From positions 49,560-113,559 of the forward strand of contig JBKECN010000057.1 in the NCBI GenBank assembly GCA_047974565.1: DNA of 64,000 nucleotides. Direction: 5' to 3'. This stretch comes from Actinomycetales bacterium (lineage in GTDB: Bacteria > Actinomycetota > Actinomycetes > Actinomycetales > CAWJMD01). Below the pieces are notes generated by a model that ran no database searches, had not been told where the DNA came from, and saw only the letters and a program-made list of their open reading frames with translations. The position numbers and the translations under genes are program-made. Positions 7,571 to 56,883 of this stretch are shown piece after piece; positions within the stretch are counted from its first letter, which is position 1; each line of letters begins with the position of its first letter.

Positions 7571-7680
7571 GGGTGAGCACGGGCTGGCACGGAACTGGGG
7601 TGGGCATCCAGCTGAGGGTGAGCACGGGGCTGGCACGGACTGGGGGCGGGCATCCAGCTGGGGGTGAGCACAGCCGGCAC
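7571..7680. repeat. 45-46 bp tandem repeat, about 2.4 copies (GGGTGAGCACGGGCTGGCACGGAACTGGGGTGGGCATCCAGCTGA)
   Basis: Units read directly at 7571-7615 and 7616-7661, with a partial unit at 7662-7680. Intergenic, between the GntR stop and the kinase operon promoter. Confidence 0.8.
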
Positions 7681-16445: not shown

Positions 16446-17654
16446 CTACAGCGAGGCCGTCGGCCAGGTGGTGCGATGGTCGGCATGCAGCAGGATGAGA
16501 TCCGGGTCGTCGACGGTGGGATAGATCCACTCCGAATTGATCGACGACTTGAGCTTCTTGGCCTCGTCCCCGGTCTGGGAGACCGTCCGGTCCCAGCCGA
16601 GGGTGAGCACAGCGCCCGCCTCGCCCAGATCCAGGCACGTGACATACGGGTCCGGCGCGAACGGCACCAACGGGTGACCCAGCAGGTCGGAGGCGACGTT
16701 GACGCCGACGAACTTTCCCTGCGGCACCGCGTGCTGGCAACTCTGGGTCACTGTGTGGCCGGGCTCGGCCACAGCAGCGGCAGTGTCGCCGGCAGCGTAG
16801 ACGCCTGGCACTTGGGGCACCCGGAGGAACTCGTCCACGACCAAGCGACCGAGCCGATCCCGCTCGGCCGGGATCTGCTCGGTCAGGTGATTCGCCCGCA
16901 TCCCCGCCGTCCAGATGACGGTGGCCGCGTCGACTTCGGTGCCATCGCTGAAGATCGTGCGCGTGGGCTCGACCCGGTCGATGGTGGTGTTCAGCACCAC
17001 CTCGACACCGGTCTCTGCGAGCGCCTTGAGAATCTCCGGCCGCGGCCCGTCGCCCAGCTCCGGGCCGACCTCCGCGGCCAGGTCGACGAGCAGCACCCGC
17101 ACCGGATGCCCCGCCGAGAGTTCTGCGAGCCTGCCGGTCAACTCGGTCGCCACCTCGATGCCGGTGAAGCCTGCGCCGACCACGACGGCCGTCCAGGCAC
17201 CCGGCTTGTCCGGGTCGTCGGCCAATCGCTGCAGGTGGGAATGCAGGGCAGCCGCGGCGGGCAGGGTATCGACATCGAAGAGATGTTCCGCGCCCGGCAG
17301 CGTCGGCCGGATCAGCCTGCTTCCGGTTGCCAGGGCGAGCCGGTCGTAGTGCAGCGTGCGGGCCGCACCGTCCCGTTCCACCACGTCCACGGTGCCGGCG
17401 GCGGTGTCGATGCCCAGCGCCGTCGCGGCCACCCGGCGGACTCCGATCGGCCCCAGCACCCGGTCCAGGCTGACGCGCATGCGTGCCGGGTCCGATTCGT
17501 ACAGCCGTGGTCGGATCACCATGTCGTCTGCGGGGGCGACCAGGGTGACCCGAAAGGCATCGTCGGGCGCGCCGAGGATCTTTCGGGTTCGCACCGCACC
17601 GGCCGCCGCCCAGACGCCGGCGAATCCGCCGCCAAGGACCAGGACTTCTTTCAT
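16446..17654 (-). CDS. ndh: type II NADH dehydrogenase (NDH-2) / FAD-dependent pyridine nucleotide-disulfide oxidoreductase
   Basis: Contains MKEVLVLGGGFAGVWAA, VVVGAGFTGIEVA and VYAAGDTA. An RBS (gagggag) lies upstream of the verified ATG at 17654. Confidence 0.85.
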   Translation of the reverse strand: MKEVLVLGGGFAGVWAAAGAVRTRKILGAPDDAFRVTLVAPADDMVIRPRLYESDPARMRVSLDRVLGPIGVRRVAATALGIDTAAGTVDVVERDGAARTLHYDRLALATGSRLIRPTLPGAEHLFDVDTLPAAAALHSHLQRLADDPDKPGAWTAVVVGAGFTGIEVATELTGRLAELSAGHPVRVLLVDLAAEVGPELGDGPRPEILKALAETGVEVVLNTTIDRVEPTRTIFSDGTEVDAATVIWTAGMRANHLTEQIPAERDRLGRLVVDEFLRVPQVPGVYAAGDTAAAVAEPGHTVTQSCQHAVPQGKFVGVNVASDLLGHPLVPFAPDPYVTCLDLGEAGAVLTLGWDRTVSQTGDEAKKLKSSINSEWIYPTVDDPDLILLHADHRTTWPTASL

Positions 17655-17720
17655 GATGCTCCCTCGGATCGTTGACCAGCCGCGGCCCGCGGTTGCGGAC
17701 CGGAACTCGTGGAGGTGGGC

Positions 17721-18233
17721 TCACCTGGACCTGGACCTGGACGCGGACCCGGGATCGCGGTCGAACAGTCGACGGGCCACACCTGCCGCCTCCGGGGCGT
17801 GCTCATCGACGGTGCCGCGGATATCGGCGATGCTGTGCCGGGCCAGCACCTCGCGCCAGGCGGCGTCCGCCGACTGCATGACAGCGTTGATCGCACACGG
17901 CCCTTCGAAACACCGCGCAGGCAGGCTTTCGCCCATGCCGCGTCGCCGGATCTCGGAACACCTGAACGCGCCTTGAGATCCATCAATGGCCTCCGCGACG
18001 TCCAAGAGCGAGATCTGCTCGGGTGGGCGCGCCAAGGTGAAGCCACCGCGAGGGCCGGGCTGGGAGGTGAGTAGACCGGCCCGGCTCAGCGCCTGCAGGT
18101 GCTTGTTGAGATACGCGGCAGGCAGATCATGACTGGCGGCCAACTTGGCTGCGGGGACGGGCTCCTGATCGCCGAGCCAGGCGAGAGTCAGCAGGATGTG
18201 CAGGCCCCACTCGACGCCCTCGCTCAACTTCAT
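17721..18233 (-). CDS. Rrf2-family transcriptional regulator (three-Cys, possibly Fe-S/redox sensing)
   Basis: Contains MKLSEGVEWGLHILLTLAW..LPAAYLNKHLQALSRAGLLTS. The Cys residues occur in FRCSE..ARCFEGPCAI. ATG verified at 18233. Confidence 0.85.
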   Translation of the reverse strand: MKLSEGVEWGLHILLTLAWLGDQEPVPAAKLAASHDLPAAYLNKHLQALSRAGLLTSQPGPRGGFTLARPPEQISLLDVAEAIDGSQGAFRCSEIRRRGMGESLPARCFEGPCAINAVMQSADAAWREVLARHSIADIRGTVDEHAPEAAGVARRLFDRDPGSASRSRSR

Positions 18234-18238
18234 TGGGT

Positions 18239-18258
18239 TATCCTGGCTAATCAGGATA
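18239..18258. promoter_or_regulatory. candidate Rrf2 operator: inverted repeat TATCCTG-N6-CAGGATA
   Basis: Read directly. AT-rich palindrome 6 nt upstream of the Rrf2 start codon, overlapping its RBS region. Confidence 0.35.
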
Positions 18259-18319
18259 GTTACTGTCAAGGATTAGATGGCTGGTTCCCAGGGTGCGGTT
18301 GGTGGGGTCCTCGGCGCCT

Positions 18320-18745
18320 GCGAAACGTCACCCGGGTCGCGAAGAGCAGCCTTGGGTAACGCTAGAAGCCACCCGAGGCGGCACAACGTCACCCGGGTCA
18401 CGAAAGCAGGCCCAAACGTCACCCGGGTCACCAAGTGCGGCCTTGGGTCACGCTAGATGCCACCCGAGGCGGCACAACGTCACCCGGGTCACGAAGTGCA
18501 GGCCCAAACGTCACCCGGGTCACGAAGAGCAGCCTTGGGCAACGCTAGAAGTCACCCGAGGCGGAACAACGTCACCCAGGTCACGAACTGCAGGCCCAAA
18601 CGCCACCCGGGTCACGAACTGCGGCCCTGGGTCACGCTAGAAGTCACCCGAGGCGGCACAACGTCACCCGGGTCACGACGGGCAGGCCCCAAACGTCACC
18701 CGGGTTGCGAAAGGGCGGGGCCCCAAACGTCACCGGGGTCACGAA
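18320..18745 (+). repeat. array 1 of the GTCAC-N4-GTCAC core repeat family (10 cores)
   Basis: Cores CGTCACCCGGGTCACG, or 1-2 nt variants, start at 18326, 18387, 18417, 18478, 18509, 18570, 18601, 18662, 18704 and 18728. Spacings are 61,30,61,31,61,31,61,42,24. Confidence 0.9.
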
Positions 18746-18813
18746 ACACGCTCTCGGGAGACGGTTGTCGGCGTCGTCAGGCAGCGCCTGAGGGGACAGC
18801 GTGCCCGGAGCGG

Positions 18814-19209
18814 TCAGCGGGAGCGGCCCCATGCGGCGTACCACTGCCACCACGGATTCAGCGCCATGAAGGAGCCGGCGTCGCCATACCCCGCGAAGAC
18901 GAAGCCATACTGGCGGTACTTCACCGTCCACAGATCCTCAGCGGGAGTCTCCACCCGCACCCCGCAACCGTCCACGCAGGTGCGGACATCGTCGTAACGG
19001 GCCCGCACTGCCGGCTCGCCCAGCACCCGGTACGCCTCGGTCGCTCGACGGAACGCCTCGGGTGACGGGCTGGTCGCGGTATCCGGATGATGCTGGCGAG
19101 CCTGTCGCCGGTAGGCGCGGGTGATGTCCAGTTGGGTGGCGTGCGGGGGAAGTTGAAGGACTGCGTAGTAGTCGTTGTCGATCCACTGGGCCAGGGTGGA
19201 GTGATCCAT
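18814..19209 (-). CDS. J-domain (DnaJ N-terminal domain) protein with a Trp/aromatic-rich C-terminus
   Basis: Contains DYYAVLQLPPHATQLDITRAYRRQARQHHPDTA (HPD motif). ATG verified at 19209, with a gaggaa RBS. The C-terminus is ..FMALNPWWQWYAAWGRSR. Confidence 0.65.
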   Translation of the reverse strand: MDHSTLAQWIDNDYYAVLQLPPHATQLDITRAYRRQARQHHPDTATSPSPEAFRRATEAYRVLGEPAVRARYDDVRTCVDGCGVRVETPAEDLWTVKYRQYGFVFAGYGDAGSFMALNPWWQWYAAWGRSR

Positions 19210-19365
19210 GGCGTTCCTCGCGCAGAAGTGGGCTTGCGTGTGCTGGTCGCGACGCTGCGCCAGCATCACGGTAACCGGTCCAGGTGCCGGTCCGTAACCC
19301 CGGGTCGAGGCCCCGGCTAGGGTTTGAGGGCCCGTCCCCGCACGTCATCGCTAGCAGAGGTCGCC

Positions 19366-19779
19366 ATGTACCGCACGATGCTCAAGAGCAAGATCCATCG
19401 AGCCACCGTCACCCACGCGGATCTGCACTACGTCGGCTCCCTCACGGTCAGCGCCGACCTGATGGCGGCAGCAGATCTGCTGCCCGGCGAGAAGGTGGAC
19501 GTGGTGGACGTCACCAACGGCGCCAGGCTTTCCACCTATGTCATCGAGGGCCCGGCAGGCGAGGGCGTGATCGGTATCAACGGCGCCGCCGCCCGATTGG
19601 TGCACGTCGGCGACATCGTCATCATCATCGGCTACGCCCAGGTGGCAGACGCCGAGGCCCGGGCTTTGGAGCCAGCCATCGTCTTCGTCGACGCCGAGAA
19701 CCGCTTCGACCACACCGGCCACGACCCGGCGGAGGCGCTGGAGGGGCTCAGCCGAGGTGACCTGGCCGAGCCGATCTGA
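19366..19779 (+). CDS. panD: aspartate 1-decarboxylase
   Basis: Contains [28 protein letters not shown], which includes the Gly-Ser self-processing site. This is the inner part of track ORF 19324..19779. Confidence 0.9.
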
Positions 19780-19819
19780 GCCTCGCCCAAGGTCGGCTAC
19801 TTCCGGGCCCAATGCCGTT

Positions 19820-20205
19820 CACCCGAAGCCACATTTCGCGACCAGGGTGACGTTTGGCCGCCGAACCTCGCGGCCCGGGTGACGTTTGGCGCCCGCACTT
19901 CGCGACCCGGGTGACATTTGGGCGCCTCGGGCAACCTCTACCGCCACCCCAGACCGCACTTCGTTACCCGGGTGACCTTTGGCCGCCGCTTTCGCGACCC
20001 GGGTGACGTTTGGCGCCTGCACTTCGCGACCCGGGTGACATTTGGCCACCTCCGGCAACCTCTACCGCCACCCCAGACCGCACTTCGCAACCAGGGTGAC
20101 GATTGGCCACTGCACTTCGCGGCCCGGGTGACGTTTGGCCACCTCGGGCAACCTCTACCGCCACCCCAGGCCGCACTTCGCTACCAGGGTGACGTTTGGC
20201 GTCCA
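19820..20205 (-). repeat. array 2 of the same core family, inverted relative to array 1 (9 cores)
   Basis: Reverse-complement cores CGCGACCCGGGTGACG (with variants) start at 19837, 19869, 19901, 19962, 19993, 20025, 20086, 20118 and 20179. Spacings are 32,32,61,31,32,61,32,61. Confidence 0.9.
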
Positions 20206-20289
20206 GCGCGTGAGGACCGACTCAACCGAACCGACTCAACCGAACCGAACAGGCGGCGCCGGTGCCTCAATCAACCGGACCGTGCGGGC

Positions 20290-20421
20290 TCAGGTGGACG
20301 GACCCGCGAAACGGTGGTCGCGCTCGCAGACCCACAGGAGCTTGGTCTCACCATCACTCGTGTGGGACTCCGTGCGCACGCCGCTACCGCCGCACTGGGG
20401 GCATGAAGGTGCAGTACTCAT
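20290..20421 (-). CDS. possible 43-aa zinc-ribbon-like small protein (not in the ORF track)
   Basis: Manual translation gives MSTAPSCPQCGGSGVRTESHTSDGETKLLWVCERDHRFAGPST*, with CPxC ... C-x3-H. There is no clear RBS and GC3 is only moderate. Confidence 0.3.
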   Translation of the reverse strand: MSTAPSCPQCGGSGVRTESHTSDGETKLLWVCERDHRFAGPST

Positions 20422-34266: not shown

Positions 34267-35172
34267 ATGCCCTCTCCCACGATGTGCCCACGTCCGGAAC
34301 CCCCGCAGCAGGTAGCCGATCGGGCGCCGGGGTCGCCCGCCAGGGGCGGGGGTCGCCGCCCGTGGAACGGGGTGGAGGAGATTCCCCCCGCCTGGGGACC
34401 CAGCGCGATCACCATCGGTGTCTTCGATGGAGTGCACCGCGGCCACACACGGTTGATCGAGCGCACCATCCAGGCCGCTCAGCGGCACCGGGTTCCCTCG
34501 GTACTGGTCACCTTCGACCCCCATCCGGCTCGCGTCATCGGGCCGCCGAGGGATACCGCGACACTGTCCACCCCGGCCCGTCGTGCCGAACTCGCCGGCC
34601 GGCTCGGCGTGGACGCCGTCCTCGTCCTGCCCTTTACCCCCGCCCTGGCCAGGACCCCGGCGGACGCGTTCGCCACCAGGGTGCTGGTTGACAATCTGCA
34701 TGCGGTTGCAGTGGTCGTTGGTCGCAACTTCCGTTTCGGCGCAGGAGGCAAGGGTGATCTGGCGACTCTGCGGCACCTTGGGCATCGGCATGGATTCACC
34801 GTCGAGGGCGTGCCGCTGCTACACACCGCGCAGTCGCGGTGTTCGTCCACCTATGTCCGGCACTGCCTGTCCAGCGGAGACCTGGCAGCAGCGACCAGAG
34901 CACTGGGCCGCCCCCACCGGGTTGAAGGGCGGCTGAGCGAGGGGACGCTCACGGTGCCGGCATACACGGCCCTACCTCCCCAGAACCGCCGATTCCCAGG
35001 TCTACTCACCCTCGAGTCCGGCATCACGCACCCGGTCAGCGCGCTGGTGGCCGCCCCGGACACGATTCGCCTTCTCGGGGGTCCGCACTGCCCGGAACAC
35101 TCCTGGGCGGCCCTGGACCTGCTGGCGGCTGACCAGCTGCGCCGCGACGATTACCCGAACTCCCCGCCCTGA
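34267..35172 (+). CDS. RibF-like FMN adenylyltransferase paralog with a degenerate riboflavin-kinase domain
   Basis: N-terminal motifs are ITIGVFDGVHRGH, VTFDPHP, NFRFGAGGKGD and SSTYVRHCL. The C-terminal half lacks the G-x-P-T-A-N kinase motif and reads TLTVPAYT instead. The start is uncertain and probably lies downstream of 34267. Confidence 0.65.
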   Translation: MPSPTMCPRPEPPQQVADRAPGSPARGGGRRPWNGVEEIPPAWGPSAITIGVFDGVHRGHTRLIERTIQAAQRHRVPSVLVTFDPHPARVIGPPRDTATLSTPARRAELAGRLGVDAVLVLPFTPALARTPADAFATRVLVDNLHAVAVVVGRNFRFGAGGKGDLATLRHLGHRHGFTVEGVPLLHTAQSRCSSTYVRHCLSSGDLAAATRALGRPHRVEGRLSEGTLTVPAYTALPPQNRRFPGLLTLESGITHPVSALVAAPDTIRLLGGPHCPEHSWAALDLLAADQLRRDDYPNSPP

Positions 35173-35308
35173 ACGATCTCCCTGCGCAGACCGGATGGCG
35201 GATTCGCTCACCGGATCGCCTGAAGCCATCGGCCGCAATAAGTTCATCATCACGGAAATAACCCGGAAATGACGGGCCGGTTTCCGTACCGCGACACCAG
35301 TGACGACA

Positions 35309-35452
35309 CATTCCCACTCCGCCGACTCCCGTCAACGCATCCGACACCGCCGGGCTTTGACGACGCATTCCAACACCGCCGACTCCAGTCGGCACATTCC
35401 AACACCGCCGACCCCAGTCGGCACATTCCAACACCGCCGATTTTCGGCATCG
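35309..35452 (+). repeat. five tandem 28-29 bp units, three of them carrying a GCCGAC-N4-GTCGGC hairpin
   Basis: Units start at 35309, 35338, 35366, 35394 and 35423 (CATTCCAACACCGCCGACYCCAGTCGGCA). The array ends just before the aggagg RBS of the flavin reductase gene. Confidence 0.85.
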
Positions 35453-45231: not shown

Positions 45232-45300
45232 CCGGCAACCCTAGGGCACGCGGGTGCGGGGGTGGATGTGAGGGACACCGACAGCGTCGCCACCGGCCGC

Positions 45301-45900
45301 GCAGCCGGAACCGGGAAGAAAGGGCACGCCCCAAACGTCACCAGGGTCACGTCTGGCAGCCTGAGGTGACCTCTAGCGTCGCCATCGGCCGCACTTCGTC
45401 ACCAGGGTCACGTCTGGCCGCGCACAACGTCACCCGGGTCACGTCCGGCAGCCACCGGTGACCACAACATGGCCATCTCCAGCCATCGGCCGCACAGCCG
45501 GAACCGGGAAGAAAGGGGCACGCCCCAAAACGTCACCGGGGTCGCATCTGGCAGCCGCAGGTAACCTCTAGCGTCGCCATCGGCCGCACTTCGTCACCCG
45601 GGTCACATCTGGTCGACGCACAACGTCACCCGAGTCACGTCTGGCAGCCACAGGTGACCTCAACTTGGCCATCGACAGCCATCGGCCGCACAGCCGGAGC
45701 CGGGAAGAAGGAGGCACGCCCCAAACGTCACCCGGGTCACATCTGGCAGCCAAGGGTGACCTCTAGCGTCGCCATCGGCCGCACTTCGTCACCCGGGTCA
45801 CGTCTGGGCGACGCACAGCGTCACCCGGGTCACGTCTGGCAGCCACAGGTGACATCTAGCGTCGCGACCGACCGCACTTTCGTCACCCGGGTCACGTCCG
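45301..45900 (+). repeat. array 3 of the core family: three copies of a 195-bp higher-order unit (10 cores)
   Basis: Cores start at 45335, 45396, 45427, 45530, 45591, 45623, 45725, 45786, 45818 and 45880. Spacings are 61,31,103,61,32,102,61,32,62. Each unit starts with CAGCCGGAACCGGGAAGAAAGG. Confidence 0.9.
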
Positions 45901-45999: not shown

Positions 46000-48900
46000 C
46001 TAGTCCGCCCACGGTGCGACGGGGTTCCCCGTCCAGCGGGTCCCGTCGGGCAAGGTGTCCCCGCGCAGCACCAGACTGGACGGACCGGCGGTGGTCCCCT
46101 CCCCGAGTCTGGCGGCGGGCAGCACCACCGAGTGCGAGCCCAGGGTGGCCCCGGGCGCCAGGCGCACCTCGTCCAGACTCATCACGCGATCGTGGAACAG
46201 GTGGGTCTGCACCACGCACCCGACGTTGACACAGGAGCCGTCCTCCAGGTGGACCAGATCTGCTTCGGGCAGCCAGTACGTCTCGCACCACACGCCGCGC
46301 CCGATGTGGGCGCCCATCGCCCGCAGCCACCAGTTGAGCACCGGGGCGCCGTAGGCACCGCGGGCGAACCACGGCACGGCCATCATCTCCACGAACGTGT
46401 CGGCCAACTCGTTGCGCCAGATGAAACTGCTCCACAAGGGGTGCTCACCGGTCCGGATCCGCCCGACCAGCAGCCACTTGGCCGCCACCGCCACTGCACA
46501 CGAGACCAGCGCCGCCATCGCCATCACCGGTGCCGCTGCCAGCACCGTGGCCGCCAACCCCCAGCGGATGAGGATCGCCTCCAAACCGAGCAGGACGCCG
46601 ACCGCGACCGCGACCGTGCCGATCACCGAGAACACCCGCAGCACCTCCACCCCGGCCCGGGCGAAGCGCAGCCGGGTCGGTGGCGCGAAGGTGAGCGAGT
46701 CGTCGCCCGCATCGGTGTCCCGGCGCAGCAACTGGGGTGGCGAGCCCACCCAGGAGGTGCCCTTCTTCGCCTTGGGCGGGGCACTGGAGAGCACGGCGAC
46801 CAGCCCGTGTTTGGGCACGCGACGACCGGGAGCGGTCATCCCCGAGTTCCCGAGGAAGGCCCGCTTGCCCACCTTGGCGCGTTCGATCCGAAGCCAGCCG
46901 TGACTGAGCTCGTACGAGGCGATCATCGTGTCGTCGGCCAGGAAGGCACCCTCGCCCACGCTCGTCATGCTGGGCAGCATGAGCACCGTCGAGGCCTCCA
47001 CGTTCGGGGCGATCTTGGCCCCCAGGGCCCGCAGCCACACCGGGGTGAACATGCTGGCGTAGAGCGGGAAGAGCAGGCCCCGGGCGTCGTCCATCAGCCG
47101 TTCGGTGGCCCACACCTGCCAGCCCACCCGGCTGCGGATCGGGTGATGCCCCTCGACCAGGCCCCACCCGAGCAGCCGGACGCACGCCCAGGTGATGAAG
47201 GCTTGGACGACGAACATCACCACCGCCCCCAGCGGCACCCACACCCACACCCGGCGAGCCACCTGCCCGATCGAATCGACCTCCCCCATCCCCCAGGCCA
47301 TGACGGCCAGGCCGACCAGCGCGGCGACCAATGGCAAGGCCGCCAACCCGGCCGCGGTGGCCGCGTACACCCCCACCCACACCCGACTCTTCGGCAGTCG
47401 CCGCTCCGGGAGGTCGAGCCGGGCCCGACCGATGAACTCGGCAGGGCTGCCCGCCCACAGCTCACCCGGCGGGACGGTCGACAGGACGGCCGAGCCCGGG
47501 GCGACCACCGCCTCCTGGCCCACCCGGGTGCCGCCCAACAGCACGCTGCGCGAACCGACGGTGGCGCCGGCGTCTACCCGGATCCGCCCCACATGGACCA
47601 CGTCGCCGTCCACCCAGTGCCCGGAAAGGTCCACCTCCGGCTCGATGGACGCGCCCCGCTTGAGGGTGAGCATGCCGGTGACCGGCGGCAACGAGTGCAG
47701 ATCGACGTTGCGTCCGATCCGAGCGCCGAGAGCCCGGGCGTAGTGGGTGAGCCAGGGGGCGGCAGCCAGGTGTCCCACCCCGGCAGCGGAGGCGAAGGCC
47801 TCGGTGAACCACAACCGCAGATGCATGCTGCCACCGCGCGGATACCGTCCGGGCGTCAACCCGCGCAGCAGCACCCGGGCGAGCGCGACCGTCAGGCCCA
47901 TCCGGCCCAGCGGTGTGATGAGTACCAGCCAGCCCAGCAGGATCCACCACCACGAGACATGCGGGATCCACCGCGCGTGCCCGATCGCCGCGGCGAGGTT
48001 GCCCAGCAGGGCCAGCCAGGTCAGCCAGCGCAAACCGACGACCCCGAGCAGCGGCAGGCCGAGCACGGTCTGGAGCCACTGGGCGCCCAATGGAACCGGG
48101 CGCACGTGGCGTCCGGTGGTCGTCACCGGCGGGTCGAACTCCTCCACCCGGTTCAGCAGGTCGCCGAAGCCGGGCGTGTCGTAGATGTCGGCGACGGTGA
48201 TGGTCGGTACCCGGGTCCGCAGCGCCGAGACGAGTTGGGCCGCCGCGAGGCTGCCGCCGCCGGCATCGAAGAAGTCGTCGGCCAGGCTCGTCACGGACGT
48301 GCCGAGCACCCGCGCCCACGCCTGGGCCAGCCATTCCCCGGTCTCGCCCAACCCGCTGATCTGGGGGGCGGACGGGCCGCCGGCATCGCTGAGTTCGACG
48401 GGCCAGGGCAAGGCGTCGCGGTCGACCTTGCCGCTGACCTTGGTGGGGATGGTGTCCACGACGACGAGTTTGGGCACGAGGGCGGCCGGGAGCCGGTCCC
48501 GGAGTTGGCCACGAGCCTGGGCGAGGTCGGGGCTCGCGTCCGCGTGCGGGGCGAGGTAGCCGACGAGCAGTTGGCTGCCGCCGTCGGTTCGGCGTACGGC
48601 GGCTGCGGCGGCCGCGACGCCGGGCAGGTCTTGCAGGGCGGCGTCCACCTCGCCGAGTTCGATCCGCCGTCCACCGAGTTTGACCTGATCGTCGGCGCGC
48701 CCCATGAAGACCAGCCCGGCGGACTCCAGCCGCACCAGATCGCCGCTGCGGTAAGCCCTTTCCCAGCCGAGTGCCGGGGCCGGGGCGTACTTCTCGGCGT
48801 CCTTGGCCGGGTCGAGGTAGCGGGCCAGCCCGACGCCGCCGATGACCAACTCGCCGACCTCACCGTCGCCGACCCGGCGCCCGTCGCCGTCCACGACGGC

Positions 48901-49974
48901 CAGATCCCATCCGTCCAGCGGGAAGCCGATTCGGACCGGGCCGGTGCCGTCCATGAGTGCCGCGCAGGCGACCACCGTGGCCTCGGTGGGTCCGTAGGTG
49001 TTCCACACCTGCCGGTCGTTGGTGGCGAGTCTGGCCGCGAGCTCGGGTGGGCAGGCTTCGCCGCCGAAGATGAGCATCCGGACGCCGGCCAGTTCCTCGG
49101 GCTGCCACAGGCCGGCCAGGGTGGGGACGGTGGAGATGATGCTCACCTGCTGCTCGACCAGCCACGGCCCCAGATCCATACCGGTGCGCACCAGCGCGCG
49201 CGGGGCCGGCACCAGGCAGGCGCCATTGCGCCAGGCGAGCCACATCTCCTCACACGAAGCGTCGAAGGCCACCGACAGGCCCGCAAGCACCCGGTCCCCC
49301 GGGCCGAGGGGATCGTCCTGCAGGAAGAGGCGGGCCTCGGCGTCGACGAAGGCGGCCGCGTTGCGGTGCCGCACGGCCACTCCCTTGGGGGTGCCGGTGG
49401 AGCCGGAGGTGAAGATGATCCAGGCGTCGTCCTCGGGATCCGGACGCCCCGCTACCAGGCCATCCGGCGACATGTCCGGCTGAGCCGACTCGGACCCATC
49501 ACGGCCGGACGCCGACCGGGTGCCGTGCGCGGTGAACTCGAAGTCGTCGGACAGCACCCCCGCGACTGCGGCCTCGCCGAAGACGGTCCGGGCCCGCTCA
49601 GCAGGGTCGTCGATGTCCACCGGCACGTAGGCCGCCCCGGCCCGCAGCACGGCGAGGATCGCGAGGTAGAGGTCGGCGCTGCCGGAGGACATCCGGACGC
49701 CGACACGGTCCCCGGGGCGCACGCCCAGCCGGTAGAGGGTTCGCGCCCGAGTGGTGATCTCGTCCCACAGGTCGCGGTAGGAGATCCTGCGGTCGCCGTC
49801 ATCGATGGCCGGCGCGTCGGCGTGGGCGCGCACGGTGTCGGCCAGCACGTCCATCAGCGTGCGGGTGGGGGGCGCCAACGGCGAACGGTCGTAGCGGCCC
49901 TGGCCGCGATCGACGGCCTCCGGCTCCGATGAACCGACCCCGGGCAACGCCGAATCGGACAGCGAGGCATCCAC
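46000..49974 (-). CDS. Pls/PosA-type single-module NRPS: A domain - T domain - three [2 TM + hexapeptide/LbH] modules
   Basis: A-domain motifs are IIFTSGSTGTPKGV, FDAS, NTYGPTEAT, YRSGD, GRADDQVKLGGRRIELGEV and SGKVDR. The T domain is FFDAGGGSLAA. Three repeats follow: LRALGARIG.., LRALGAKIA.. and LRAMGAHIG.., each after a TM pair. There is no C or TE domain. Confidence 0.85.
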   Translation of the reverse strand: MDASLSDSALPGVGSSEPEAVDRGQGRYDRSPLAPPTRTLMDVLADTVRAHADAPAIDDGDRRISYRDLWDEITTRARTLYRLGVRPGDRVGVRMSSGSADLYLAILAVLRAGAAYVPVDIDDPAERARTVFGEAAVAGVLSDDFEFTAHGTRSASGRDGSESAQPDMSPDGLVAGRPDPEDDAWIIFTSGSTGTPKGVAVRHRNAAAFVDAEARLFLQDDPLGPGDRVLAGLSVAFDASCEEMWLAWRNGACLVPAPRALVRTGMDLGPWLVEQQVSIISTVPTLAGLWQPEELAGVRMLIFGGEACPPELAARLATNDRQVWNTYGPTEATVVACAALMDGTGPVRIGFPLDGWDLAVVDGDGRRVGDGEVGELVIGGVGLARYLDPAKDAEKYAPAPALGWERAYRSGDLVRLESAGLVFMGRADDQVKLGGRRIELGEVDAALQDLPGVAAAAAAVRRTDGGSQLLVGYLAPHADASPDLAQARGQLRDRLPAALVPKLVVVDTIPTKVSGKVDRDALPWPVELSDAGGPSAPQISGLGETGEWLAQAWARVLGTSVTSLADDFFDAGGGSLAAAQLVSALRTRVPTITVADIYDTPGFGDLLNRVEEFDPPVTTTGRHVRPVPLGAQWLQTVLGLPLLGVVGLRWLTWLALLGNLAAAIGHARWIPHVSWWWILLGWLVLITPLGRMGLTVALARVLLRGLTPGRYPRGGSMHLRLWFTEAFASAAGVGHLAAAPWLTHYARALGARIGRNVDLHSLPPVTGMLTLKRGASIEPEVDLSGHWVDGDVVHVGRIRVDAGATVGSRSVLLGGTRVGQEAVVAPGSAVLSTVPPGELWAGSPAEFIGRARLDLPERRLPKSRVWVGVYAATAAGLAALPLVAALVGLAVMAWGMGEVDSIGQVARRVWVWVPLGAVVMFVVQAFITWACVRLLGWGLVEGHHPIRSRVGWQVWATERLMDDARGLLFPLYASMFTPVWLRALGAKIAPNVEASTVLMLPSMTSVGEGAFLADDTMIASYELSHGWLRIERAKVGKRAFLGNSGMTAPGRRVPKHGLVAVLSSAPPKAKKGTSWVGSPPQLLRRDTDAGDDSLTFAPPTRLRFARAGVEVLRVFSVIGTVAVAVGVLLGLEAILIRWGLAATVLAAAPVMAMAALVSCAVAVAAKWLLVGRIRTGEHPLWSSFIWRNELADTFVEMMAVPWFARGAYGAPVLNWWLRAMGAHIGRGVWCETYWLPEADLVHLEDGSCVNVGCVVQTHLFHDRVMSLDEVRLAPGATLGSHSVVLPAARLGEGTTAGPSSLVLRGDTLPDGTRWTGNPVAPWAD

Positions 49975-54030: not shown

Positions 54031-56883
54031 TCAGGGAGCCTGCGGGGGCAGGGTGGTGGTGCCTGCCGTGGCCTGTTCGGCCGCCGACGCCTTGGCCGTC
54101 CGCTTCGCGCTGGTCGCCGTCTTGGCTGTGGCCTTCTTCGCCGGCGCCTTCTTGGCGGTGGTCTTCGTCGCCGCAGCCTTCTTAGCCGGCGCCTTCTTGG
54201 CCGTGGTCTTCTTCGCGGTGGTCTTCTTGGCCGTGGTCTTCTTGGCAGCCCGCTTGCGAGTGGAGGGCCCCTTGGCCCGCTTCTCGGCCAGCAACTCGGC
54301 GGCACGCTCCAGGGTGATGGCCTCCACCGAATCGTCGCGACGGAGGGTGGCGTTGGTCTCCCCATCGGTGACGTAGGGGCCGAACCGCCCGTCCTTCACC
54401 ACCACCGGCTTCTCGCTGGCCGGGTCGGTGCCGAGTTCGCGCAGCGGCGGCGCCACCGCCTGCCCACGCCTGGTCTTGGGCTGGGCGTAGATCTTCAGCG
54501 CCTCGTCCAGCGTGATGTCGAAGATCTGATCCTCACTGGTCAAAGAACGAGAGTCCTTGTCCCGCTTGAGATATGGCCCGTACCTGCCGTTCTGCGCGGT
54601 GATCTCCACGCCCGTCTCGGGGTCCAGGCCCACCACCCGCGGCAACGAGAGCAACCGCAACGCCTGCTCATGGGTGACCGTCTCGGGTTGCATGGACTTG
54701 AACAGCGACCCGGTCCGGGGCTTAGCCGACTTGGGGGCGTCCTCCGGTAGAACCTCGGTCACGTACGGCCCATACCGACCGTTCTTCACCACGATCGAGT
54801 AGCCCGTGTCGGGATTCACGCCGAGTTCGCGGTCCCCCTCGGCCTGGGCGTCGAGCAACTCTCGGGCCTTGGCCACGGTGAGTTCGTCAGGGGCCACGTC
54901 GTCGGGTACCGACGCCCGGCGCGGCTCCTGACCGTCCGCCCCCTCGGTCTGCAGGTAGGGCCCGTAGCGGCCAACCCGCAGGGTGATGCCGTCGCCGATG
55001 TCGATGGAGTTCACCGCGCGGGCGTCGATCTCGCCGAGATCCTCCACCAGTGCCTTGAGGCCGTGGCTGGTCTCGGTGCGGTCCAGCGGCACCGTGGGGT
55101 CCCCGAAGTAGAAGTGGGTGAGCCAGTCCACCCGATCCTGGGCGCCGGAGGCGATCCGGTCCAGGTCCTCCTCCATGGACGCGGTGAAGTCGTAGTCGAC
55201 GAGTCCGCCGAAGTTCTCCTCCAGCAGCCGCACCACCGAGAAGGCCAGCCAGCTGGGCACCAGCGCCGAGCCCCGGTGCGCGACATACCCGCGGTCGATG
55301 ATCACCGAGATGGTCGCCGCATAGGTGGACGGTCGCCCGATCCCTTTCTCTTCCAGCGCCTTGACCAGGCTGGCCTCGGTGTAGCGGGGCGGTGGCGAGG
55401 TGACGTGGTCGTCGACGGACAGCTCGAGGGCGTCGAGGCGCTGACCCTCGACGAGGTCCGGCAAGCGCTTGTCCCCGCCCTCGTCGCGGTTACGCTCCTC
55501 GTCCCGGCCCTCCTCGTAGGCGGCCAGGAAGCCGCGGAAGGTGATCACGGTGCCGGACGCGGAGAACTCGGCTCTCCGGCCGTCCGCGGAGGTGGCGGCC
55601 AGCCGCACGGTCGCGGTGGACCCGCGCGCATCGGCCATCTGGGAGGCCACGGTGCGCTGCCAGATCAACTCGTAGAGCCGGAACTCGTCCCCGCGCAGGG
55701 CACCGGCGACCTGGCCAGGGGTGCGGAAGGTGTCGCCGGAGGGACGGATCGCCTCGTGCGCCTCCTGGGCGTTCTTGGACTTGTTCGCGTACACCCGGGG
55801 CTGGGCCGGGACGTGATCGGCTCCGTACATCTGCGCGGCCTGGGCTCGGGCGGCGTTGACCGCCTGCGAGGACAGCGCCGTGGAGTCGGTACGCATGTAC
55901 GTGATGTAGCCGTTCTCGTACAGCGCCTGGGCCACCCGCATGGTCTGACGAGCCGACAACCTCAGCTTGCGCGAGGCCTCCTGCTGCAGGGTGGAGGTGG
56001 TGAACGGTGCCGAGGGGCGGCGGGTGTAGGGCTTGGTCTCCATCGAGGAGACGGTGACCGGAGCCGATTCCAGGCCCGCCGCGAGCGAGCGCACCGCGGT
56101 CTCGTCCAGGGCGACCGCCTTGCCGGTCAGGTTGCCGCGGTCGTCGAAGTCACGGCCGGTGGCCACTCGCTGCCCGTCCAGGCCGACCAGCCGGGCGGTG
56201 AAGGATTGCCGGCGGGCGTCCTGCTGCTCGTCGCGGGTGGCGAAGGTACCCAGGATGTCCCAGTAGTGGGCGGCGCGGAAGGCCATCCGCTCGCGCTCGC
56301 GGGCGACCACCATCCGGGTGGCCACCGACTGCACGCGCCCGGCCGAGAGCCCGGCCCGCACCTTGCGCCAGAGCACCGGGGAGATCTCGTACCCGTAGAG
56401 GCGGTCGAGGATCCGCCGGGTCTCCTGGGCGTCGACGAGACGCTCGTCGATGGAGCGAGTCGCGCCCAACGCACGCTGAATCGCTTCACGGGTGATCTCG
56501 TGGAAGACCATCCGCTTGACCGGCACCGTCGGCTTGAGGGTCTGCAACAAGTGCCAGGCGATGGCCTCGCCCTCGCGGTCCTCATCTGTGGCCAGGTAGA
56601 GCTCGTCCGCATCCTTGAGCAGGCGTTTGAGCTCGGAGACCTTCTTGCGCTTGTCCGGGTCGACGACGTAGTACGGGTCGAAGCCGTTGTCGACGTCGAC
56701 GGCGAACTTGCCGTACGGGCCCTTCTTCATGTCCTCGGGCAACTCGGAGGGGGTGGGCAGGTCCCGAATGTGCCCCACCGACGCCTCCACGTCGTACCCG
56801 GGCCCGAGATATCCGGCGATCGTCTTCGCCTTGGCCGGCGATTCGACGATGACGAGACGTCGCGTCGTGTCCGTGCTTGCCAC
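54031..56883 (-). CDS. topA: DNA topoisomerase I with a Lys/Ala/Thr-rich C-terminal tail
   Basis: The Toprim N-terminus is LVIVESPAKAKTIAGYLG, and the active-site Tyr region is GYITYMRTDS. The tail is (KKTTA/KKAPA) repeats. Confidence 0.95.
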   Translation of the reverse strand: MASTDTTRRLVIVESPAKAKTIAGYLGPGYDVEASVGHIRDLPTPSELPEDMKKGPYGKFAVDVDNGFDPYYVVDPDKRKKVSELKRLLKDADELYLATDEDREGEAIAWHLLQTLKPTVPVKRMVFHEITREAIQRALGATRSIDERLVDAQETRRILDRLYGYEISPVLWRKVRAGLSAGRVQSVATRMVVARERERMAFRAAHYWDILGTFATRDEQQDARRQSFTARLVGLDGQRVATGRDFDDRGNLTGKAVALDETAVRSLAAGLESAPVTVSSMETKPYTRRPSAPFTTSTLQQEASRKLRLSARQTMRVAQALYENGYITYMRTDSTALSSQAVNAARAQAAQMYGADHVPAQPRVYANKSKNAQEAHEAIRPSGDTFRTPGQVAGALRGDEFRLYELIWQRTVASQMADARGSTATVRLAATSADGRRAEFSASGTVITFRGFLAAYEEGRDEERNRDEGGDKRLPDLVEGQRLDALELSVDDHVTSPPPRYTEASLVKALEEKGIGRPSTYAATISVIIDRGYVAHRGSALVPSWLAFSVVRLLEENFGGLVDYDFTASMEEDLDRIASGAQDRVDWLTHFYFGDPTVPLDRTETSHGLKALVEDLGEIDARAVNSIDIGDGITLRVGRYGPYLQTEGADGQEPRRASVPDDVAPDELTVAKARELLDAQAEGDRELGVNPDTGYSIVVKNGRYGPYVTEVLPEDAPKSAKPRTGSLFKSMQPETVTHEQALRLLSLPRVVGLDPETGVEITAQNGRYGPYLKRDKDSRSLTSEDQIFDITLDEALKIYAQPKTRRGQAVAPPLRELGTDPASEKPVVVKDGRFGPYVTDGETNATLRRDDSVEAITLERAAELLAEKRAKGPSTRKRAAKKTTAKKTTAKKTTAKKAPAKKAAATKTTAKKAPAKKATAKTATSAKRTAKASAAEQATAGTTTLPPQAP

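Follow-up and report, generated by a model that had tools for sequence, protein, structure and literature searches.

Three intergenic arrays of a long imperfect palindrome in an actinobacterial genome, likened in architecture to REP/BIME repeats

A 64-kb stretch of the genome of an Actinomycetales bacterium (69% G+C; hereafter the window, to which the structural analysis of this one genome refers) contains three non-coding tandem arrays of a long imperfect palindrome that has been locally amplified. The arrays are built on a short core, and a search for its 14-mer form GTCACCCGGGTCAC with up to three mismatches places ten cores at 18327-18742 on the plus strand (array 1), nine at 19838-20193 on the minus strand (array 2) and ten at 45337-45895 on the plus strand (array 3), which are the 29 cores described in the original prediction from this DNA. 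The 16-mer form, CGTCACCCGGGTCACG, searched with up to two mismatches, has 34 matches in the window, several of them one near-palindromic site counted on both strands, against 0.29 ± 0.59 by chance, a count that none of 100 shuffles attains. All three arrays are placed between called genes, as had been predicted, at 58-104 bp downstream of a gene stop, and a minus-strand gene lies directly upstream of each of them (a DnaJ-domain gene, a zinc-ribbon gene and a gene resembling a nonribosomal peptide synthetase [NRPS-like], respectively). The 92-bp unit of array 1 is not a multiple of three, and the arrays are thus non-coding; a coding repeat is ruled out, as open reading frames (ORFs) across the arrays shift frame with each unit.

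Each core consists of two direct GTCAC 9-mers (GTCACccgg and GTCACgaag) around the palindrome ACCCGGGT, just as it was first described, and is preceded by a conserved short 5′ flank, (A)AC; in array 2 the right half-site is degenerate, mostly GGGTCGC. Cut at the core starts, the arrays resolve into S modules (the core and 16-20 nt) and L modules (the core and 47 nt), with X modules of 102-103 bp confined to array 3. The distances from one core start to the next are 61 or 30-34 bp in arrays 1 and 2, close to the common spacing of 61 and 30-32 bp claimed for all three, but array 3 adds two distances of 102-103 bp and has a 195-bp higher-order unit. Tandem Repeats Finder reports a period of 92 bp in array 1 (4.2 copies, 89% matches), periods of 93 and 124 bp in array 2, and a period of 195 bp in array 3 (2.9 copies, 90% matches, from 45289). 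With 87-90% identity between units, these periods show that tandem duplication has multiplied the units locally, for which unequal recombination or slippage would be the likely mechanism. A CTAG thought to be shared by the arrays is common to arrays 1 and 3 only (8 of the 34 CTAGs in the window), and array 2 has GGTAGAG at that place.

The dominant feature of the arrays is a palindrome that the original prediction overlooked. In all three arrays, each L module together with the following core forms a 77-nt imperfect palindrome centred on the CTAG-bearing loop, one example being CGTCACCCGGGTCAC-GAAGAGCAG-CCTTGGGTCAC-GCTAGAA-GTCACCCGAGG-CGGCACAA-CGTCACCCGGGTCACG. The unit of ~92 bp comprises two inverted arms of ~35 nt, each with a core, joined by a 7-nt loop and followed by a linker of 15-17 nt. 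The inner-stem sequence differs between the arrays, yet the palindrome spans the entire L module in each. At minimum free energy, array 1 and most single units fold into one long hairpin, with core paired to core in the outer stem and the 7-nt loop with CTAG capping an inner stem of 11-12 bp; in array 2, each ~35-nt arm folds on its own. The degenerate core noted within the 61-bp module is the tip of this hairpin, with its half-sites swapped (GGGTNAC-7 nt-GTCACCC), and it lies 41 bp past one core start and 20 bp ahead of the next. There is thus no underlying period of 30.5 bp, near three helical turns, of the kind proposed.

The palindrome is real and far above chance. When the 11 long units of the three arrays are aligned, mirror positions hold standard pairs in 71% of cells, compared with 29-46% when the partners are slid by one to three columns, and hairpin potential is retained in every one of the 11 long modules. 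As RNA, single units fold with -28 to -50 kcal/mol (z -2.8 to -6.5, with the array 2 values on the minus strand), and the whole of array 1 has z scores of -7.8 on the plus and -9.8 on the minus strand. With DNA parameters the single units of arrays 1 and 3 have z scores of -1.9 to -3.7, and those of array 2 are not significant. In these alignments, conservation of pairing is inseparable from conservation of sequence.

The three arrays belong to one family, as copies that have diverged and that differ in orientation. Array 2 corresponds to array 1 in the inverted orientation (209 versus 52 bits by blastn). The spacers of array 3 match those of array 2 with 100 bits when the cores are opposed and 52 bits otherwise, and array 3 matches array 1 with 138 bits in both orientations; its relation to arrays 1 and 2 is probably mosaic, or ambiguous in orientation. 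Despite the inversion of array 2, the RNA minimum free energy is lower on the window minus strand in 11 of 11 units, and the plus strand has a GC skew (C>G) of -0.06, -0.15 and -0.13 in the three arrays versus ~0 for the window. In array 2, only minus-strand RNA gives significant folds of the units, by way of G.U pairs (z -2.8 to -3.3, versus -1.3 to +1.1 on the plus strand). The minus strand is also the sense strand of the gene directly upstream of each array. The asymmetry is suggestive of minus-strand transcription, through either selection on the RNA or a transcription-linked C-to-T bias, and we take it as suggestive only. A scan for promoters and terminators around arrays 1 and 2 found none.

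Aligning the units bears out in part the view that the core is conserved above its spacers. Between the array consensuses the 14-nt core differs at 12 of 84 positions (14%) and the spacers at 77 of 198 (39%; Fisher p=4e-5), a comparison of three arrays in an assumed orientation, in which the contrast shrinks when array 3 is flipped. Within arrays, by contrast, deviations from the consensus are similar in the core (12/280; 4.3%) and the spacers (44/647; 6.8%; p=0.18). In these alignments the core stands out as the best-kept block over the longer term, and recent constraint is not demonstrable. The polarity of the core is constant. The perfect-palindrome form would be GTCACCCGGGTGAC, and none of the 29 cores is perfectly palindromic; G occurs at core position 3 or 12 in none of the 58 half-sites, with both half-sites holding the same polarity.

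Among the collections searched, the repeat family is restricted to this lineage. The exact double-core pattern was scanned in 185,579 GTDB species genomes, JGI metagenomes and IMG/VR; there were no matches in IMG/VR, and the alternation of 61 and 31 bp is absent from all pattern matches in the GTDB genomes and JGI metagenomes. Those matches are in-frame repeats of 9, 15, 27, 30 and 33 bp, seemingly coding, and two unrelated non-coding tandem repeats. The 14-mer GTCACCCGGGTCAC is present in Streptomyces sp. NRRL S-1022, in a 17-bp unit repeated five times just past a stop codon, and in a delta-proteobacterial metagenome-assembled genome, in a 38-39 bp unit with CTAG at several loci (L004:4885-4966; L008:1-54; L009:5899-5990 and 6117 for the two repeats); both have different spacers and neither has the 61/31 alternation. 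Array 1 has no blastn similarity to 72,556 plasmids and 50,697 phages. At the gathering threshold of Rfam 15 the sole match in the window is a tRNA, and a permissive Rfam scan of the arrays gives only chance matches to miRNA precursors (E 0.3-0.5).

The best foreign relatives have a PanD that is 89% identical and a FolK that is 72% identical to those of the window. The arrays are absent both from the PanD relatives (87-89%), which are not syntenic with the window, and from the FolK relatives (66-72%), which are; in the relatives the interval between the zinc-ribbon and nuoD-like genes has other content and no arrays. Window positions 16446-20290 form a variable islet when compared with L029:3595-6087 and L032:9004-10500. 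Here it contains ndh, the Rrf2 gene, array 1, the orphan DnaJ-domain gene, panD and array 2; in L029 its place is taken by a SUKH-3 gene and 1.3 kb without a called gene, and in L032 by a flavin mononucleotide (FMN) reductase gene. In the closest relatives panD lies elsewhere, adjoining aspS and an isochorismatase gene, and a different tandem repeat, of 27 bp, is found beside it (L015:11955-12128; also L016-L018 and L020), with 4.5 to 6.4 copies depending on the sample. This 27-bp repeat sits between, or at the 5′ end of, histidine-kinase and response-regulator genes, and gene calls disagree as to whether it is coding.

Logan assemblies of five other runs of the same species (L001-L003, L035 and L036) carry the same array ends and break inside the arrays, and the arrays are thus not an artefact of one assembly. 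Between these strain-level contigs the arrays evolve about ten times faster than their flanks: five of seven mismatches in L002 are in the last 90 nt, and L001 has four differences in ~140 nt of array and three in ~1170 nt of flank. Each of the L001 array variants is also present in another unit, which fits unit shuffling. In L001 (SRR32022553), positions 1-340, the last units of array 1 are joined to 340 nt that are foreign to the window, at a junction (...GGCCAAAC|GTCACC) that resembles the ordinary start of an array. The contig hints at a further array locus, unless the assembly graph yielded a chimeric path here.

In architecture, the 77-nt palindrome points to repeats of the repetitive extragenic palindromic (REP) and bacterial interspersed mosaic element (BIME) type more than to an iteron, centromere or titration array. 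REP elements mark and protect the 3′ ends of transcripts and separate neighbouring transcription units; they are defined by hundreds of dispersed copies and by an associated tyrosine transposase (REP-associated tyrosine transposase, RAYT), and one tandem example, REP325 of E. coli, is the source of the nucleoid-associated RNA naRNA4. Most REPs are found downstream of ORFs, and some form tandem series (PMC3733652); PMC2817692 describes BIMEs as REPs at regular spacing and in alternating orientation. REP325 itself has six tandem 77-bp units, each of two palindromes and a linker, with identical spacers, and it lies between two genes and is transcribed (PMC4550694). The arrays of the window are likewise intergenic and just downstream of a gene, with a unit (~77 nt) of two palindromic arms and a short linker, a constant spacer, arms of alternating orientation with two alternating linker lengths (7 nt and 15-17 nt), and a strong hairpin or cruciform potential; instead of six units they have three to four long units and extra cores.

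There are also departures from the REP/BIME pattern. The arrays have no sequence similarity to BIME-2/REP325 and are in a high-GC actinobacterium. A REP is a stem-loop of 20-40 nt, whereas the conserved element here is a 16-bp near-palindrome without a loop, in which both half-sites have the GTCAC polarity. The alternation of orientation that characterizes BIMEs is present only if the unit is taken to be the core with its arm, as the cores themselves are all direct. REPs are dispersed genome-wide at high copy number. The 64 kb covered here has three loci, with no single copies and a hint of a fourth locus.

A second comparison is with the superfamily of CGTC-tagged REPs that includes Neisseria dRS3/NIME (PMC3733652), as 25 of the 29 cores begin with CGTC and two with TGTC, a variant that has also been reported for these elements (Di Nocera et al. 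2013, PMC3733652). As in that superfamily, short conserved palindromes are clustered with stretches of greater variability between them, and there is no sign of a dedicated transposase. The CGTC families have an unpaired CGTC tag, a stem of 8-9 bp that opens with A-T pairs, a loop of 4-5 nt and a CCA tail, and they are mostly head-to-head dimers in alpha-proteobacteria, with Actinobacteria unmentioned in the paper (PMC3733652). Here the CGTC runs into ACCCGGGT without a loop and is paired in the predicted folds, and the arrangement of stem, loop and tail that defines the superfamily is absent.

Mycobacterial interspersed repetitive units (MIRUs) and variable number tandem repeats (VNTRs) are also intergenic actinobacterial tandem repeats of 40-100 bp, and copy number and unit makeup appear to vary between strains in the arrays too. 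MIRUs are not known to be long palindromes, however, and are oriented with their operon, whereas the unit here is a 77-nt palindrome and its orientation varies. The earlier suggestion of a new family of MIRU/VNTR type is close to the conclusion reached here.

Further classes of element were considered and set aside. A CRISPR array is ruled out, as the spacers are themselves repeated (units 87-90% identical) and have two or three fixed lengths. Integron attC sites were dropped, given the tandem multiples, the mixed orientation and the absence of an integrase. An iteron, a sopC-like centromere or a clt site is not favoured: there is no rep, par or tra gene and no parS in the window, and no plasmid, phage or IMG/VR similarity, and the iteron-like or centromere-like array of the original prediction lacks a context of plasmid, phage or partition genes. 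In Streptomyces plasmids, clt loci consist of clustered short repeats, both direct and inverted, beside a tra gene. The reverse strand of the core contains GACCCGGG, one base from what we take to be the TraB recognition sequence of pSVH1, GACCCGGA; a clt/TraB site is unsupported by the gene context.

We put the probability at roughly 0.5 that the arrays are lineage-specific REP/BIME-like clustered palindromic repeats, likened by their architecture within the window, that act through folded RNA. The element would act as a folded nucleic acid, with minus-strand read-through RNA forming very stable stem-loops that may mark or protect the 3′ ends of transcripts and act as barriers between neighbouring transcription units. 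The arrays may possibly also extrude as cruciforms, and the core could be the recognition site of a putative protein with a role in binding or dispersing the element. The features that had pointed to a new regulatory array, namely the regular spacing, the internal pseudo-core and the helical phasing, all follow from a single hairpin unit having been duplicated in tandem.

Several observations weigh against this REP/BIME-like interpretation. There is no transposase, and specifically no RAYT (Y1 transposase), among the ~40 window ORFs scanned. A 77-nt covariance model run over the window with filters off finds no single copies outside the arrays, and its weak matches at 34650 and 9152 are ordinary hairpins. 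Covariation of the helix is not significant, as both partners have changed in just two pairs and shuffles give more; within an array, differences from unit to unit disrupt pairs instead of compensating, and no U-tract terminators were found. The minus-strand folding bias represents three independent arrays (p of about 0.25), and strand-biased C-to-T mutation could be its source. In all 11 hairpins the C of every GTCAC is mismatched with another C, with no instance of repair to a pair, which fits sequence recognition better than stem optimisation. Finally, the strictly direct polarity of the GTCAC half-sites is unexplained by tandem duplication, which keeps a protein-binding interpretation alive at low probability.

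That the arrays are a functionless minisatellite is rather unlikely. A slippage-prone palindrome would have expanded at a few sites, and the core would owe its conservation to descent, concerted evolution and near-palindromy. Core and spacers are equally conserved within arrays, covariation is lacking, and the arrays evolve about ten times faster than their flanks, with variants that recur in other units; they are also absent from all relatives examined and, as regards arrays 1 and 2, are in a variable islet. With array 3 in its best spacer-matching orientation, moreover, the differences amount to 2 of 14 positions in its core and ~28% in the spacers, which is no clear contrast. A minisatellite would leave unexplained that the three loci share the L/S arrangement of modules and the core despite spacer divergence of 30-45%, and that hairpin potential persists in all 11 long modules. 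The L001 assembly path suggests at least one further locus, and thus dispersal rather than local slippage alone. A yet lower probability attaches to arrays that load protein on double-stranded DNA, with a head-to-tail dimer on GTCAC-N4-GTCAC (the candidates being an OmpR/PhoB-type response regulator, for instance MtrA, or some other dimeric or nucleoid-associated protein) and a role as decoy, titration site, insulator or centromere-like platform for organising the chromosome. This is consistent with the better conservation of the core between arrays (14% versus 39% differing positions), the conserved (A)AC flank and the constant half-site polarity, although the missing G at the asymmetric core positions is weak evidence, as C-to-G changes are rare anyway. 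The GTCAC starts within a unit are spaced by 9, 20, 12, 20, 9 and 22 bp, in each case no more than 1.5 bp off a whole number of helical turns, but the 61/31 spacing follows from duplication of a 92-bp unit without selection. Protein loading also leaves the 45-bp spacer palindromy unexplained, and within arrays the core has no significant advantage over the spacers in conservation. GTCAC-N4-GTCAC is at chance level in the rest of the window (11 sites outside the arrays versus 8.4 expected), and the window is without partition or replication genes or parS.

The original prediction had described the mycobacterial MtrA box as direct GTCACAgcg-like 9-mers, in agreement with the literature, where it is two such 9-mers in direct orientation. 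Both core 9-mers start with GTCAC, and GTCACccgg, like GTCACgaag, agrees at 6 of 9 positions with the half-site GTCACAgcg of Mycobacterium tuberculosis. The 9-bp half-site period corresponds to this mycobacterial description and not to the MtrA site of Streptomyces, with its 6-N5-6 layout and period of 11 bp, and MtrA boxes are known as single or few sites in promoters and oriC, whereas these are arrays of about ten. It is improbable that the arrays are loading or decoy platforms for an MtrA-like OmpR-family regulator, which would place ~60 phased half-sites in 27 kb of core chromosome and might buffer the regulator or organise the chromosome. Least probable by far is that the arrays are the cis site of a mobile or extrachromosomal element, or what remains of one, examples being plasmid iterons, a sopC-like centromere, a Streptomyces clt site (repeats recognised by a translocase of the TraB/FtsK type), or the debris of a miniature inverted-repeat transposable element or terminal inverted repeat. 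In iterons, centromeres and clt loci too, a single protein binds a cluster of short repeats, direct and inverted, and arrays 1 and 2 are mutually inverted and flank the orphan DnaJ-domain gene and a panD that is placed elsewhere in relatives. However, Pfam identifies no tra, rep, par, integrase or transposase gene among the ~40 ORFs, the plasmid, phage and IMG/VR searches gave no similarity, no target-site duplications were seen at the array edges, and the setting is one of topA, tmk, holB, ftsH and fol genes.

The coordinates of the arrays, their hairpins and the flanking genes are collected in Table 1. Each 195-bp unit of array 3 has GCCGGA(A/G)CCGGGAAGAA(A/G)G(G/A)GGCACGCCCCAAAC (45289-45336, 45480-45531 and 45675-45726); within this motif is a Shine-Dalgarno-like AAGGAGG/AAAGGGG with no start codon after it, and the tail of the motif resembles the last S module of array 1 (18709-18728). 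Further tandem repeats in the window are at 35304-35439 (29 bp x 4.7), at 7571-7671 (46 bp x 2.2), at 20216-20248 directly upstream of array 2 (14 bp x 2.4), and at 54116-54246, where a 15/45-bp repeat is within the lysine/alanine-rich C-terminal tail of topA.

Table 1. Arrays, modules, predicted hairpins and flanking genes (window coordinates; L, S and X are the modules defined in the text).
Feature	Coordinates	Strand	Remarks
Array 1	18326..18743	+	10 cores; L S L S L S L S S; 92-bp unit x 4.2; DnaJ-domain gene stop to Rrf2 start
Array 2	19837..20194	-	9 cores; L S L S S L S S read on - strand; panD stop to zinc-ribbon stop
Array 3	45289..45896	+	10 cores; L S X L S X L S L; 195-bp higher-order unit x 2.9; M1-peptidase start to NRPS-like stop
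X module 1 of array 3, 103 bp	45429..45531	+	begins L-like; ends ...GAAAGGGGCACGCCCCAAAAC, similar to array 1 tail S module (18695-18728)
X module 2 of array 3, 102 bp	45625..45726	+	second X module
Hairpin A1_1, 77 nt (core, arm, GCTAGAA loop, arm, core)	18326..18402	+	covariance model 93.8 bits
Hairpin A1_2, 77 nt	18417..18493	+	RNA -47.2 (+) / -50.1 (-) kcal/mol, z -6.5 / -5.8; DNA z -3.7 / -2.8
Hairpin A1_3, 77 nt	18509..18585	+	palindrome, covariance model
Hairpin A1_4, 77 nt	18601..18677	+	palindrome, covariance model
Hairpin A2_1, 77 nt	20118..20194	-	folds as - strand RNA only, two ~35-nt G.U-rich hairpins; z -3.3 (-), -0.6 (+)
Hairpin A2_2, 77 nt	20025..20101	-	z -3.0 (-), +1.1 (+)
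Hairpin A2_3, 77 nt	19901..19977	-	RNA z -2.8 (-), -1.3 (+); not significant as DNA
Hairpin A3_1, 77 nt	45336..45412	+	loop CTCTAGC
Hairpin A3_2, 77 nt	45531..45607	+	palindrome, covariance model
Hairpin A3_3, 77 nt	45726..45802	+	RNA z -4.3 (+), -5.6 (-)
Hairpin A3_4, 78 nt	45819..45896	+	palindrome, covariance model
Rrf2 gene	start 18233	-	flanks array 1
DnaJ-domain gene, 131 aa	18814-19209	-	between array 1 and panD; stop 18814
panD	stop 19779	+	flanks array 2
Zinc-ribbon gene, 43 aa (CxxC...C..H)	20290-20421	-	stop 20290; next to DUF3180/folK
M1-peptidase gene	start 45231	-	flanks array 3
NRPS-like gene (AMP-binding, PP-binding)	46000-49974	-	stop 46000; flanks array 3

The genes of the window are housekeeping genes, and include topA, tmk, holB, ftsH, folE/P/B/K, tilS, hpt, ppa, def, panD and a nuoD-like gene. 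The J-domain protein has a single distant homologue (39% identity) among 5.8 billion clustered proteins; its gene is a lineage-specific orphan and is thus unusable for locating relatives. No record of the exact M1-peptidase protein was found. The zinc-ribbon ORF has no Pfam match and is 79% identical in two relatives (L032:9527-9655; L029:5895-6038), and is thus a real conserved small gene. Within the 87 bp that separate the Rrf2 gene from array 1 is ATCCTGGCTAATCAGGAT (18240-18257), an inverted repeat ATCCTG-N6-CAGGAT that lies 7 nt upstream of the Rrf2 start codon on the minus strand and is plausibly the operator of the adjoining Rrf2 regulator.

The repeat family is new, real and tidy, and of a kind that is already known, the REP/BIME-like repeats; nothing found favours a new kind of regulatory array. 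We know of no chromosomal titration or centromere-like array of such a kind in Actinobacteria, and a protein titration array, if true, would be a new regulatory principle. REP/BIME repeats are well studied in proteobacteria, and to our knowledge there are few descriptions in high-GC Actinobacteria. With its defined 77-nt hairpin unit, conserved core and strand-asymmetric predicted folding, the family is a test case for the origin of such repeats and their spread with no evident transposase, and for their effects on transcript ends in organisms with poorly understood intrinsic terminators. Short-read assemblies of this uncultured lineage break at the arrays, which might serve as strain markers.

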